A stretch of DNA of 63,995 nucleotides, filler included. It is 9 parts of 9 records of this genome, joined end to end, with 100 filler letters (N's around TTAATTAATTAA, not from the genome) between each part and the next. Parts side by side here need not be neighbours in the genome. Positions count along the whole stretch, not along the records: positions 58,933 to 63,995 come from SRR31156797_22547; 8 more parts are not named here. The stretch is one strand, 5' to 3'. Shown piece by piece: positions 58,933 to 63,995 of this stretch. Positions within the stretch are counted from its first letter, which is position 1; each line of letters opens with the position of its first letter. Below the pieces are notes generated by a model, which saw only the letters and a program-made list of their open reading frames with translations, did not search any database and was not told the origin of the DNA. Both the position numbers and the translations under genes were made by a program.

Positions 58933-60681
58933 GACAAGTACGGGTTTCCCTGGAAACTTTTTCCCCATCCCCTGGATGACTCCTTCAACCGCTTCTTCAC
59001 TCACTTTCAGGGCCACCCCGCCCACATCGGTCTTATGAAGGATCTCAGGATCGCATATCTTGACAACATAGGGCGGAGCAAGTCCGGCGGATTTCAGGGC
59101 CGTAGAAATTTCTGTTTCCGGACCGATGAGGGCGCTTTTATGGACTGGGAGGCCTGCCTTTCTAAAAAGTTCCGAGGTCTCCCACTCGTCCGGTTTTCCC
59201 GGAACCTTCAGGTTTGCTTTCCATTCGGCAACTGCCGCTGCAAGCACCTCCCGATTTTTCCCTTCGGCCTCTTCACTACAGGGGCCTTCTTCCCGACACC
59301 GGAGCATATTTCCCCTTTCTACAAGGAAGCGGGCGGCCCGGACGGTCCGGCCGATGGACGGAAACCCCGGGGCACCCTCTTTGTAGAAGGCTCGGAGATA
59401 CTCATCGGTGTAGGGGCCGTATTCGGTGAAGATTAGAATTGGTTTAGCGGCTTTCCGGACCCGTTTCCCAATCTGGGCGATAAGGTTGTTGTTGATGGTC
59501 GGCGGGGCAAAGAAGGTGACGCAGATGATTATGTCTACTCCCCTGTCTTCGAGAAGGGCATCGAGGGCGGAGGTGAACATCCCGTTATCGGCACTGGCCG
59601 TCAGATCCACCGGGTTGTTTACCGCGGCGAAGGGAAGGGTTTCTTTCCGAATTCTTTCTTTCGTCTTTTCCGAGAGTTCCGCCATGGCGAGACCCGCCCG
59701 ATTGTCATCGGAATCGATATAGTCGGTACACATGACGCCGAATCCTCCGGCGGGTGTGATAACCGCCACCCGGTTCCCGGCGGCGGGGTTGAGCATCGAG
59801 AGGGCCAGGGCGGCGTCGCAGAGTTCCTCGTCATCAAAGGCCCGCTGGATGCCCGACTGCCGGAAGGCACCGTTGACGACTTTGTCTGATCCGGCCAGGC
59901 GTCCCGTATGACTCCCGGCAGCCGAAGCTCCGGCTGCGGTGCGTCCGGCCTTCAGAACGATCACCGGTTTGGTCTCCGAGACTTCCCGGCAGGCCTTCAA
60001 ATACTCCCGCTCCCCTTCGACGCTCTCTACGTAGATGGCCAGGCAGTTTGTTTTCTCATCCTTTCCGAAGTAGCGGATAAAATCCAGCTCGGTCAGATCG
60101 GTCTTGTTTCCTGTTCCTACAAAGGCCCGCATCCCGAAGCCCGTGTTGGAGGCCAGGCCCAGGGATTCCACTCCCACCGAACCGCTCTGACTGATAAAGG
60201 CGACGCTTCCCCCCTCGGCCAGGGCCTTGTCCCCGTGTTCCACGAAGATTGTATCCAGATCGTTTTCCGGAACAAAGACCCCGAGGGAGTTGGGTCCCAG
60301 GATCCGGGTCCTCCCTTCGGCGACAACCGCGCGGAGCCTCTCCTCAAGGGCTTTCCCTTTTTCCCCGATTTCACTGAAACCGCCGGCCACCACGATCAGA
60401 AAGGGGATTCCCTTTCTTGAGCAGGCCTCCGCCGCCTCGACCGAACGTTCCGCTCCCAGAGCCGCAACGGCCAGATCGACGCCTTCGGGAAGTTCGTCGA
60501 TGGAGGAATAGACGGGGATGTGCATCAGGTAGTCGAGTTTCGGATTCACCGGATAGAGCCGGGCTTTTGTCTTCCGGAGGTACTTCATTATCGTCGTCCC
60601 GGCCTTGTCAGGGGTTTCCGATGCCCCTATCAGGGCGATAGCTCGGGGATTAAAAAGTCTTTCAAGATCCGGGGTATTCAT
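58933..60681 (-). CDS. ADP-forming acetate/acyl-CoA ligase family protein (3' partial)
   Basis: FNPRAIALIGAS, GPNSLG, SQSG, SHTG phospho-His, NNPVDL and ATP-grasp HKTDVGGV; ATG at 60681 after GGAGG. Confidence 0.93.
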
Positions 60682-60826
60682 GGGCGGCCTCCTGTTTGTA
60701 CGCAATCGGAATTATAACACAACGGCGCACATTAAAAAAACCGCAGAGATTGAAACGCCCCTCTTCGTTGTTGAGGGAAAAAATAGATGAAACATATTTT
60801 TTAATGAACCCAGGAAGAGGGGTGTT

Positions 60827-61720
60827 TCAATCCTCCACGACCCCCTCTGCCTTCTCCTTCAAATAGGAGGAAAAGGATATTTTCGGGATCCCCCGGGCGG
60901 GTTTGGCTTCGACGGTCATCTCCTCGCCCGTAGCCGGATGGCGGACGACCCGGGGTTTCTGGGCATCCCGGGTTTTAATTGAGAATTTTCCCAGCCGGCC
61001 GATGGGGACCGATTCGCCCATCAGCATACCGGTTTCGATGAGGGTTATAAAATCTTCCAGGATCAGTTTTGCCTCCTGACCTGTCAGTCCGTGTTTCTTT
61101 GCCAGAAAACGGGTCATTGATTTCATTGTAAACTGATCGGGAACCGAGCCTGCATCAATAGCAAGGCTCTGATTGTACTTCATAAAACCGGCGGTAATGA
61201 AAATGGCACTCTCCCGGACCCGCTTGTCCTGCTCCTCTTCATCCAGCTCTGGCGGGCAGATGGCGATCAGGTAGGCGGGGCTCGTTGTCTTCACCTTCGA
61301 TCCCCCAAGGCTTACCGGTTTTCCTTCTGAAAGATCGGCGGCCAGGGATACTCCCTTATCCATAATAATATCCGGGACTTCGGTCCGTAGTTTAATGGAA
61401 GAGTACTCGATCCAGCGGCCCAGATTAAGGTTGGTGGTGGTCGGGAAAACGGGCCCTACGCAGAGGATTGATCCCGAATAGGTGAGGATCATCATCCCCC
61501 GGGTGTCCTTCAGGGAGACCTCCTCGGTCAGCTCCAATTTTACCGCTCCGATCTGCTTTCTGAACAGTTCTTCTTTTTTATTCCAGACGAAGGCAAGGGA
61601 ACCGACATAGTCGTCATCTTTACCCCGATCCTGCTCTTCGGCAATCCTTAGGATATGATTCCGGATTTTCTCCGGCAATTCGTTTATCGCTTTGTTCCAG
61701 GTCATAGTGTGCCTCTCCAT
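60827..61720 (-). CDS. Unknown ~180-aa domain fused to a C-terminal HU/IHF DNA-binding domain
   Basis: C-terminus ...GESVPIGRLGKFSIKTRDAQKPRVVRHPATGEEMTVEAKPARGIPKISFSSYLKE is HU/IHF-like; the N-terminus is paralogous to 61860-62399. Confidence 0.85.
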   Translation of the reverse strand: MERHTMTWNKAINELPEKIRNHILRIAEEQDRGKDDDYVGSLAFVWNKKEELFRKQIGAVKLELTEEVSLKDTRGMMILTYSGSILCVGPVFPTTTNLNLGRWIEYSSIKLRTEVPDIIMDKGVSLAADLSEGKPVSLGGSKVKTTSPAYLIAICPPELDEEEQDKRVRESAIFITAGFMKYNQSLAIDAGSVPDQFTMKSMTRFLAKKHGLTGQEAKLILEDFITLIETGMLMGESVPIGRLGKFSIKTRDAQKPRVVRHPATGEEMTVEAKPARGIPKISFSSYLKEKAEGVVED

Positions 61721-61859
61721 AATAAAAAGTAGAGCCTAATATGGGAAAAAACAATGTTTTTCTATATAATTTTCAAAAAAACCCGGAAAAAATGGTTTTA
61801 TTTTGAAAACGGGTATAGGATTACGGTTGCAGCTGCTTATAATTCTATTTAGGAGTACA

Positions 61860-62399
61860 ATGATGGGTGATAAATTTGACGGCCTCTTACCTGAGGTTAA
61901 AGAACATATAAAAAAACTGGTAAAGACGGCGGGGCTGGAAAACAGCGACGAATCTCTGGAAATGCTTTCCGCCGGATGGCTTGAAAAGCAGGAGTCCTTC
62001 TTCGAACAGACGAAGCAGAAGGAAATGGAGGAGACCGACGCTTTGAATGCCGATGATCTGCGGGGGGCTCTGGTTATGACCATTTCGGGTTCCCTTATAA
62101 ATATCGGTCCCGAGATTGAGGATATGCGTTCCGCTTCCTACTACTCCATCGGTTTAAGGAATGATGTCCCCGAATCGGCGGAAGAGGCGGGCTCTGTCCT
62201 GGCAAAGAGCGTTCTGAAGGGAGAAACGGTGGAGTTTGAAAAGGGGCCGATTGTGAAATCCAGTCCCGCCTTCGCCATTGCGGTTTTCAAGGAAGAGCTT
62301 GAGCTGGAGCCTGAAGCGGAAGAGGAACTGCTGGATGAGGTAACCATGATCGTGGCGGGTGATTTTGCATCGATCAACAAAACAACAATGCATGAATAG
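61860..62399 (+). CDS. Hypothetical protein, stand-alone paralogue of the N-terminal domain of 60827-61720
   Basis: AGGAG RBS at 61851; shares the W..K...F..Q, D.RG....T.SGS....GP, Y.SI.LR..VP and SPA..IA motifs. Confidence 0.85.
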   Translation: MMGDKFDGLLPEVKEHIKKLVKTAGLENSDESLEMLSAGWLEKQESFFEQTKQKEMEETDALNADDLRGALVMTISGSLINIGPEIEDMRSASYYSIGLRNDVPESAEEAGSVLAKSVLKGETVEFEKGPIVKSSPAFAIAVFKEELELEPEAEEELLDEVTMIVAGDFASINKTTMHE

Positions 62400-62411
62400 T
62401 TGAGGTAGAGT

Positions 62412-63428
62412 TTGAAAACAGAAAGTTCGGCCTGGAGGGAGACGGCTTCGCGCCTTAAGTTCATTTCAAGGCGTCGGGGTCTTCCCGGGAGTGAGGAGTT
62501 GAGAGAGGTTCTGGACCGGGGGATCGGTGCCCTTGGGACTGAAAATACCGGAATTCGGCCTTTGAACCGTCGGGGTCTGCCCGGCGGACTGGTCTATCTG
62601 AAACCCGGCGGTTATTTTCTCCTCCTTCCGGATCTCCATGGCAGGACGGACTTTTTTTACAATGCCCTGATGTATACGGGATATTCGGGAAATCCGGTGA
62701 TCGAGGATATGGATGCCGGACGGGCTCAGGTTGTCTGTGTGGGGGATGCCTTCCACTCCGAAGCCCGGGGGCGCAGCCGCTGGAAGAAGGCTTTTGATGA
62801 GTACACCAGGGGATTCAAATCCCGCCGGAATATGGATAAGGAAATGGCTGAGAATCTTGGGTTATTGGAGATGATAGCCCTGGTGAAATCGGCCTGGCCC
62901 CGGGGGTTTCATTTTCTAAAAGGGAACCACGAGAATATCGCCAACGAGGGGATTGAAGGAAACTTTCCGTTCCGAAAGTACGCCCATGAAGGGGAGATGG
63001 TAAAACTCTGGGTTCAGAATTTTCTGGGCATGGAACTCTTCGAGGCGATCTACCGCTGGGAAAAGGGACTGGCTCTGATGGCTGTGGGGGAGGATTTTCT
63101 GATCACCCACGCCGAGCCGGCCTTTACACTGACGCCGGATGAGGTTGTGAACTGCTACGAGGATGGGGATATCATCGCCGGCCTCACCTGGACCGATAAC
63201 GGCCGGGCGGAACAGGGCAGTGTGGAGGGGACTCTGGCGGCCTTCGGCATCGATTCCCCCGGGGGACGGATCTTCGGCGGCCACCGGCCTGTGCAGGGGC
63301 TTTACGATCTCCGGCAGGAAGGGCGGTATGTTCAGATTAACACACCAAATGACTGGACCGTCGGGGTTTTTGAGAATATGGCCGGCTTCAGGCCGGAAGA
63401 AAATATTATCTGCTTGAATCAGAGGTAG
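62412..63428 (+). CDS. Calcineurin-like metallophosphoesterase (PPP-like)
   Basis: DLHG, GDAFH, GNHE, THA and GH motifs. Confidence 0.88.
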   Translation: MKTESSAWRETASRLKFISRRRGLPGSEELREVLDRGIGALGTENTGIRPLNRRGLPGGLVYLKPGGYFLLLPDLHGRTDFFYNALMYTGYSGNPVIEDMDAGRAQVVCVGDAFHSEARGRSRWKKAFDEYTRGFKSRRNMDKEMAENLGLLEMIALVKSAWPRGFHFLKGNHENIANEGIEGNFPFRKYAHEGEMVKLWVQNFLGMELFEAIYRWEKGLALMAVGEDFLITHAEPAFTLTPDEVVNCYEDGDIIAGLTWTDNGRAEQGSVEGTLAAFGIDSPGGRIFGGHRPVQGLYDLRQEGRYVQINTPNDWTVGVFENMAGFRPEENIICLNQR

Positions 63429-63431
63429 GAA

Positions 63432-63995
63432 ATGGCGAAGATACCGGAACAAATCGATAAATACAAAATTGAGGCATTGGTGGCCACCGGCGGTATGGGT
63501 GCGGTCTTTAAGGGGATCCATCCGACCCTGAAACGGCCGGTGATTCTGAAAAAGCTCACCCTCCGGGGAAATGCTTCGGTCACCGAACGGTTCCGTCGGG
63601 AAGCCCGGATCCTTATGGATTTCCGGAACGATTACATTGTGGACGTACAGGATCATTTTATTCAGGGGAGGAGTCACTACATCGTCATGGAGTACGTCGA
63701 CGGCCTCTCGGTGAAGGACCTCATTGATGAGGAACGCTATCTGGACAACTGCTCCGCCGCCTACATTGCTCTCTACATTGCCCGGGCTCTGGCCTACGCC
63801 CATGCCAAAGGGGTTGTTCACCGTGACATCAAGCCGGGGAATATTCTGATCGCAAAGACCGGAGAAGTCAAGCTTGCTGATTTCGGCATCGCCTCGGCGA
63901 AAGATCTTGATTCCGGAGAGGATGAAGAACTGACCACCGACGGGATGACCCTGGGCACCCCGGCCTATATGGCCCCGGAGCAGTTTCAGAACTCC
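63432..63995 (+). CDS. Hanks-type Ser/Thr protein kinase (3' partial)
   Basis: Not in ORF track. Manual translation gives MAKIPEQIDKYKIEALVATGGMGAVFKG...ILKK...RFRREA...HRDIKPGNIL...DFG...GTPAYMAPEQ. Confidence 0.96.
   Translation, partial: MAKIPEQIDKYKIEALVATGGMGAVFKGIHPTLKRPVILKKLTLRGNASVTERFRREARILMDFRNDYIVDVQDHFIQGRSHYIVMEYVDGLSVKDLIDEERYLDNCSAAYIALYIARALAYAHAKGVVHRDIKPGNILIAKTGEVKLADFGIASAKDLDSGEDEELTTDGMTLGTPAYMAPEQFQNS

Follow-up and report, generated by a model that had tools for sequence, protein, structure and literature searches.

The switch in which the kinases PknG and PknB act with GarA or OdhI is designed around an N-terminal threonine and a canonical forkhead-associated (FHA) domain. 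Other phosphorylation systems have been described in Sulfolobus, where Arn comprises the FHA protein ArnA, the vWA protein ArnB, the kinases ArnC and ArnD and a PP2A phosphatase (PMC5007285), and under the names Esr and vWA-MoxR (PMC13622651, PMC7159879). Moreover, Hanks kinases that phosphorylate HU lowered its DNA binding in M. xanthus and M. tuberculosis (PMC6213207, PMC4754617). The dedicated outputs of most bacterial Hanks kinases are not known, and Ser/Thr signaling in spirochetes is barely described in the literature searched. The present work concerns a locus on the 5063-bp contig (SRR31156797_22547, 54% GC) that occupies positions 58933-63995 of a 63,995-nucleotide stretch of DNA (the window), in which it is joined by runs of N to unrelated pieces. 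In this locus, a gene encoding an uncatalogued domain (X) fused to an HU/IHF domain (gene A, X-HU) is divergent from an operon in which a stand-alone X gene (gene B) precedes the genes of a metallophosphoesterase resembling PPP-family protein phosphatases and of a Hanks-type Ser/Thr kinase.

These genes are the front of a conserved six-gene cassette of Spirochaetota, cut off by the contig end. The reading favored here, with a probability of roughly 0.55, is that the cassette acts as a phosphorylation switch leading from the envelope to DNA, with X as its putative soluble relay and X-HU as its putative DNA-binding output. A single locus offers a whole pathway, comprising a predicted sensor, a kinase, a variant PPP-like phosphatase, an uncatalogued domain, an HU fusion and a candidate operator, and its claims are testable with few purified proteins, because a homolog of B (WP_013252717.1) exists in the cultured Sediminispirochaeta smaragdinae DSM 11293.

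A Six-Gene Cassette of Spirochaetota

In relatives, the gene order was X, PPP-like phosphoesterase, one-pass membrane Hanks kinase, a membrane protein with an FHA-like domain (TM-FHA) and a VWA protein with a membrane helix and an FHA-like domain (VWA-TM-FHA, hereafter VWA-FHA), to which X-HU is added. Gene A was divergent from B, phosphoesterase and kinase in 17/17 closest loci, all from GTDB genomes, so the four-gene linkage proposed in a first-pass annotation of this DNA was retained. That annotation had also suggested extending the contig past the kinase, and the relatives supplied the answer: TM-FHA came next in 16/17 loci and VWA-FHA in 15/17, the misses being contig ends.

Co-occurrence with X, which had earlier been named as a check, was counted across one set of 401 Spirochaetota genomes. 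X was detected in 56 of them, the phosphoesterase in 87, TM-FHA in 50 and a soluble FHA protein in 67. When these lists were compared, X was present in 50/50 genomes with TM-FHA, and the phosphoesterase in 51/56 genomes with X; the six X genomes without TM-FHA comprised five that held only distant X copies or copies fused to another uncatalogued domain (Y), and one with a cut contig. At the locus level, X directly preceded the phosphoesterase or the kinase 64 times, and 57 of these loci showed TM-FHA or VWA-FHA, while six of the remaining seven were cut by contig ends and one (L101) was split. X-HU adjoined the operon in 37/64 loci, in four arrangements (28 divergent upstream, 7 convergent downstream, 1 tandem downstream and 1 tandem upstream, with L014 re-binned by hand and X-HU lying outside the fetched stretch in the other 27), so that its tie to the operon survives rearrangement. 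In two genomes (G215 and G322), X-HU was found far from the operon on the same contig, and a distant stand-alone X lay directly 5′ of free HU genes in 2/7 loci. No other conserved neighbor was recognized, the largest flanking cluster being generic and occurring in 7/64 loci.

A simpler configuration was found in genomes that carry the phosphoesterase and lack X, 34 of which were fetched out of 36. In 26/34, a soluble and canonical FHA protein occupied the slot of X in an operon with the phosphoesterase and the kinase, whereas the other eight held the enzyme pair alone (six) or the phosphoesterase alone (two). None of X, TM-FHA and VWA-FHA was found near the phosphoesterase in these 34 genomes. 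This co-occurrence pattern indicates a small core plus an extension that brings X together with both membrane proteins. The soluble FHA protein was also present at fifteen X loci (18 if three weak matches are included). The X-less, GarA-like three-gene operon is compact and belongs to smaller genomes (26 loci within L117-L145, e.g., L121:6699-9634). Additionally, in G045 the cassette was directly followed by a further kinase, joined to a canonical FHA domain (L073:1276-2493).

The X Domain and Its Companion Proteins

The X domain comprises ~175 aa and is common to A and B, which were 29% identical across 140 aa (E 2e-17). The first-pass annotation had recognized one shared domain and had been unable to assign it, and both statements agreed with the searches, in which no Pfam family was found for B at E<=1 and NCBIfam returned one row only (E 0.27). 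Word-seeded searches retrieved 78 relatives of B and 25 of the X region of A, and a profile of A and B run against 1.84 billion representatives retrieved 212 clusters at E<=0.001, the best 150 of which were listed. All relatives with a source name, a minority of those retrieved, were spirochetes, the group in which the module had previously been placed; the genome searches for X covered Spirochaetota only. Four forms were distinguished: X alone (B), HU-fused (A), fused to Y, and distant stand-alone. Y is a conserved uncatalogued C-terminal domain of ~115 aa, and the X-Y genes (L059:8194-9105, L082:7128-8054, L095:8439-9449, L097:5077-5949, L106:7646-8590) had no fixed neighbors. A distant X-like match of 444 aa (P0250, E 4e-8) showed an atypical composition and a long branch. 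Among viral contigs, a single-protein query sensitive to close relatives only gave 29 pattern matches, none of them related, and the sequencing-run search listed no RNA run among its matches.

A quick tree with 135 rows placed all 50 X-HU rows in one group (SH-aLRT 100), and the branching order of this group mirrored that of B, which points to one old duplication followed by vertical descent; B was not resolved as a single group. The AlphaFold2 model of X was confident (pLDDT 92) and consisted of three N-terminal helices, an eight-strand core and a long C-terminal helix. Neither the whole domain nor its core had a Foldseek match in the PDB at E<=0.001, BFVD gave no match, PDB sequences were matched at a best E of only 0.065-0.078, and two X homologs queried in the ESM Atlas reached a top score of 0.80 to unannotated clusters, with nothing else usable. 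The NucS N-terminal, Sm-like and PH-like beta domains were compared as candidate folds. VIA-align reached a Z of at most 4.9 with the whole domain and 5.8 with the core alone, values that show neither a new nor a known fold; the core aligned with NucS chain 2vld_B at Z 5.8 (root-mean-square deviation 3.9, 79 aligned residues) and the whole domain at Z 4.5 (3.5, 81 aligned), which is no clear structural match.

Residues 200-290 of A matched Bac_DNA_binding (E 5.9e-14, 52.5 bits against a cut-off of 22.4). The basic arms of HU/IHF proteins carry an intercalating proline. Here the arms were kept, with Lys255 in 51, Arg257 in 52 and Pro262 in 48 of 54 rows, which include a few free-standing HU matches. 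The median net charge was −17 for B, −5 for the X part of A and +9 for the HU part. A complex prediction of A (residues 5-192) with B scored 0.00, in a run made without alignments and with an uncertain partner fold.

The TxSGS and SP motifs of X had earlier been proposed as phosphorylation sites, and this assignment was rejected. These residues stay invariant in X copies that are remote from any kinase gene, they lie at strand ends and in a hairpin turn of the confident model, and the proline of SP is lost in distant classes; Thr74, Ser76, Ser78, Ser96, Ser/Thr134 and Ser135 were (near-)invariant in every X class, and the positions look structural or like a binding pocket. A better candidate may be Thr175 of B, which stands at the end of the last helix, two residues past a conserved Asn, and is Thr in 62/67 sequences, together with its counterpart Ser185 of A, which lies at the X-HU hinge just before the HU domain and is Ser/Thr in 44/49.

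The kinase of the window matched Pkinase at E 1.8e-37 (129.6 bits against a cut-off of 31.7). In relatives, this protein has 520-700 aa, one membrane helix (44/46) and an outer C-terminal domain, with the HRD, DFG and APE/SPE motifs present in 45/46, 45/46 and 42/46, respectively. The outer domain is its most variable part (24%, compared with 59% for the kinase domain), and no family was common to more than one of 42 members, the best PDB match having an E of 0.09. The phosphoesterase of the window had no Pfam match, whereas Metallophos was matched by 7/8 relatives scanned. Its metal ligands Asp74, His76 and Gly171-Asn-His were kept in 101/101 sequences and Glu174 in 100/101, in agreement with the DxH and GNHE metal-binding motifs of the PPP family. 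When its profile was compared with the PDB, 47/48 matches were named Ser/Thr phosphatases, almost all of the PP1, BSU1 or PP5 type, although even the best was weak (E 6e-4). On these matches, the enzyme likely works like a PPP protein phosphatase.

The VWA protein comprises an N-terminal hydrophobic segment, the VWA domain, a membrane helix and an FHA-like domain, and is predicted to be exported; two hydrophobic segments were recognized in 33/43 members, and the metal site (metal ion-dependent adhesion site, DxSxS with a downstream S/T-D-G) was intact in 45/45. TM-FHA is a multi-pass membrane protein with a C-terminal FHA-like domain. FHA domains bind phosphothreonine through the Arg of GR, the Ser of SxxH and the Asn of NG. 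These residues were found in 3, 15 and 3 of 61 TM-FHA sequences, respectively, and in none of 56 VWA-FHA sequences. In the soluble FHA protein of relatives, the Arg, Ser, His and Asn of the binding loops were each present in 42/42, as was an N-terminal Thr-Ile/Val.

The spacer between A and B supplies a possible target for X-HU. Fourteen aligned spacers share a 40-bp element with four short invariant cores spaced by about one helical turn, A/T tracts between them and inverted outer arms. Its pairwise identity was 79.5%, whereas the spacer flanks reached 49% and 59%, and the fourfold-degenerate sites of the genes on either side 34-36%. A matrix built from the 14 spacers and scanned over 137 loci added 7 further loci, with one background match, and every locus with the element had A and B in divergent orientation. 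When the leaders of more distant loci were aligned, in sets of 9, 17 and 16, no element appeared, no relaxed-matrix scan having been made there. A regulon scan of 10 genomes, in which 150 candidates were scored each, revealed no second full-length copy, and its 8 strong matches were training sites or a near-copy of one. The spacer likely carries back-to-back promoters, judged by hexamers picked by eye from the alignment at ~61726-61754 (minus) and 61793-61821 (plus); a consensus promoter scan gave 2 sites against 1.9 expected and adds no support. The element overlaps the likely promoter of B and, as a candidate operator, would fit local autoregulation by X-HU. A palindromic hexamer at ~61829-61835, downstream of that promoter, was kept in 12/14 aligned spacers. 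Rfam returned only miRNA models, far below cut-offs. One genome (G337) contained eight identical partial matches to the element. The four checked (L193, L198, L203, L207) bordered a near-identical repeated stretch, 1.5 kb long or more and probably a mobile element, with an edge partly similar to the spacer element.

The coordinates of these features are collected below. The open reading frames, spacer and intergenic gaps (12 nt between B and phosphoesterase, 3 nt between phosphoesterase and kinase) reported by the first-pass annotation were reproduced on re-check.

Table 1. Positions, within the window, of the genes and spacer features of the cassette locus
Feature	Position	Strand	Description
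Gene A	60827-61720	minus	297 aa; X domain at ~residues 6-186 fused to HU/IHF domain 198-290
Spacer between A and B	61721-61859		139 bp, AT-rich
Conserved pseudo-palindromic element, candidate operator	61770-61809		40 bp, inside the A-B spacer
Gene B	61860-62399	plus	179 aa; stand-alone acidic X domain, first operon gene
PPP-like metallophosphoesterase, variant second motif	62412-63428	plus
Hanks-type Ser/Thr kinase	63432-63995	plus	Truncated by contig end

Gene B starts with two adjacent ATG codons; its 179 aa are counted from the first, and relatives favor the second. Directly past the stop codon of A, an inverted repeat (60748-60832) with 38-nt arms, 76% complementary, is a likely terminator of this gene. 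Further left, 58933-60681 (minus) encodes an NDP-forming acyl-CoA ligase that is truncated by the contig start and was not seen next to the cassette in any of the 17 closest loci. There is no genomic context left of 58933, since the contig starts there and is joined by N to unrelated DNA. The window as a whole consists of nine pieces of 26-54% GC, for which one common source organism is not required.

Proposed Signaling Pathway and Competing Readings

In the proposed switch, the exported VWA domain and the variable outer domain of the kinase would respond to a cue in the envelope, with both pseudo-FHA membrane proteins acting as a scaffold for the kinase. The kinase and the PPP-like enzyme would then set the phosphorylation of Thr175 in B and of Ser185 in A, the conserved C-terminal Thr/Ser position of X, and, where the soluble FHA protein is present, that of its N-terminal Thr. 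B may pair with A through their like domains and tune HU-mediated DNA binding, first at its own promoter, and in the clade of the window, A may bind the spacer element and regulate both divergent promoters. A phosphorylation switch with a DNA-binding output had been suggested earlier and is still the best reading. A more specific version, which we regard as tentative and clearly less probable than the switch in general, is that X-HU is a dedicated "response regulator" for Ser/Thr signaling, in which phosphorylated X switches a site-selective HU dimer on the phased 40-bp operator. If true, this would be a two-component-like pathway made from eukaryote-type parts, with a VWA sensor in a membrane kinase complex.

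Several observations weigh against this pathway. The ties of X to the kinase, the phosphatase and the HU partner all come from gene context, and the co-occurrence partly reflects shared descent, because the genomes are related and mostly incomplete. In 36 genomes, the phosphoesterase-kinase pair does without X; in 27/64 loci, no X-HU was seen adjoining the operon; and some X copies, namely X-Y fusions and distant forms, are remote from kinase genes. Three cassettes (L078, L085 and L104) lack the phosphoesterase, so that X directly precedes the kinase. The distance correlation between A and B (0.60) was not above those between A and kinase (0.72) or B and phosphoesterase (0.66). Two defining PPP motifs, GDxxDRG and the (I/L/V)D(S/T)G of bacterial enzymes (PMC2887360), are absent from the phosphoesterase, which instead has GDxxHxE in 101/101 sequences, with an invariant Arg123 further on, and Gln-x-(His/Asn)-x-Pro at the position matching the latter; this absence makes another substrate possible. 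No phosphate reader was found in the clade, where the membrane FHA domains are degenerate and a close relative (G001) gave no soluble-FHA match at E<=1e-30. Finally, the spacer element was found in one clade only (20/137 loci scanned) and had no second full-length copy in the 8 genomes holding it, and another regulator or RNA polymerase could be its binder. In the three cassettes lacking the phosphoesterase, it was not found elsewhere in the same genomes either.

In the best-placed alternative, which we nevertheless consider rather unlikely, X would be the reader and not the substrate, its invariant polar residues forming a pocket that binds a phosphopeptide or a phosphorylated small molecule and replaces FHA, with X-HU still as the signaling output. 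Besides the Thr and Ser positions named above as (near-)invariant in every X class, the same holds for Lys43, Arg90, Tyr94, Arg100 and Asp102; X also takes the gene slot of the soluble FHA protein and, in a 701-aa protein cluster (P0181) where it is fused behind VWA-TM, the usual position of the FHA domain, and the membrane FHA domains cannot read phosphothreonine. However, X and the soluble FHA protein showed no profile similarity, and B, at a median of −17, is strongly acidic.

That acidity can also be turned into an explanation of its own, in which B is an anti-HU DNA mimic that blocks the basic arms of X-HU while the kinase mainly acts elsewhere. The contrast in charge between B and the HU part fits this idea, and an acidic HU-binding mimic has a precedent in DMP12 (PMC3643605). 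We judge it improbable, since it leaves unexplained both the X domain that A itself carries and the constant position of B as the first gene of the kinase operon in 64 loci.

Equally improbable is that the cassette controls the assembly of a membrane machine for secretion, adhesion or motility, the pseudo-FHA domains being structural rings, as in type III SctD or Esx EccC/EssC, and X-HU merely autoregulating the operon. Such a role would suit the degenerate FHA domains, the single-copy spacer element and the match of 29/30 TM-FHA proteins to Yop-YscD_cpl, and PMC5007285 describes an archaeal FHA/vWA/kinase/PP2A network that controls motility genes; the neighborhood speaks against it, as no conserved secretion, pilus, flagellar or ATPase gene accompanies the 64 loci.

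A threat-sensing or anti-phage module like vWA-MoxR or Esr, the defense role raised by the first-pass annotation, is the least probable reading, for although Esr pairs a vWA protein, a kinase, a phosphatase and an FHA output with a transcriptional effect (PMC13622651) and the outer domain of the kinase is variable, PADLOC matched the kinase catalytic domain only and left the other 6/7 cassette proteins unmatched, no conserved MoxR or effector neighbor was present, the gene content is fixed, TM-FHA is single-copy in 49/50 genomes, and the mirrored tree of X-HU and B argues for vertical inheritance.

Comparison with Described Systems

The phosphorylation switch proposed here was compared with described systems. 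The literature search, which did not cover supplements, revealed no description of the cassette; the supplement of PMC5499826 might list an X-HU architecture. HU-HIG and HU-CCDC81 likewise fuse an HU domain to another domain, and carry C-terminal winged helix-turn-helix, immunoglobulin, Gly-rich or transmembrane-SPOR/LysM parts (PMC5499826). Compared by description, they show no N-terminal X and no kinase context, and A scored below the cut-offs of both families. Phosphorylation brakes HU-type DNA binding in the pair of M. xanthus Pkn2 and HUalpha and in M. tuberculosis HupB (PMC6213207, PMC4754617). There, however, the target is a general HU, one substrate among many, whereas the cassette has a dedicated HU paralog with an extra domain, genetically tied to one kinase.

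The soluble FHA protein of relatives resembles GarA and OdhI in having an N-terminal Thr and a canonical FHA domain. In contrast to them, it scored 38 bits against an OdhI cut-off of 200, is paired with a PPP-like enzyme, and is absent from the window's locus.

With Arn, the cassette shares all four ingredients and, as proposed here, a promoter-level output (PMC5007285). A soluble ZnF-FHA protein of Arn binds a phosphorylated cytoplasmic vWA protein; the VWA protein of the cassette, in contrast, has membrane segments and a degenerate FHA domain and is predicted to be exported and membrane-anchored. Both membrane FHA domains of the cassette lack the phosphothreonine-binding residues, its parts are encoded in one operon, and its putative DNA-binding part is an HU fusion. 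Esr and vWA-MoxR resemble the cassette in the vWA protein, the Ser/Thr kinase, the phosphatase and, as proposed for the cassette, a phosphorylated soluble output that alters transcription (PMC13622651, PMC7159879). They differ from it in that the cassette lacks conserved genes for MoxR, a beta-propeller sensor, a transglutaminase or effectors, its content is fixed, and X and X-HU take the place of variable FHA outputs. Within the fetched flanks of the 64 loci, no match to a MoxR-type AAA+ motif was found beside the vWA gene. The ingredients recall Arn and Esr, yet the defining features of both are absent, and the cassette is a variant of kinase/phosphatase/FHA/VWA signaling with a likely HU-type output.

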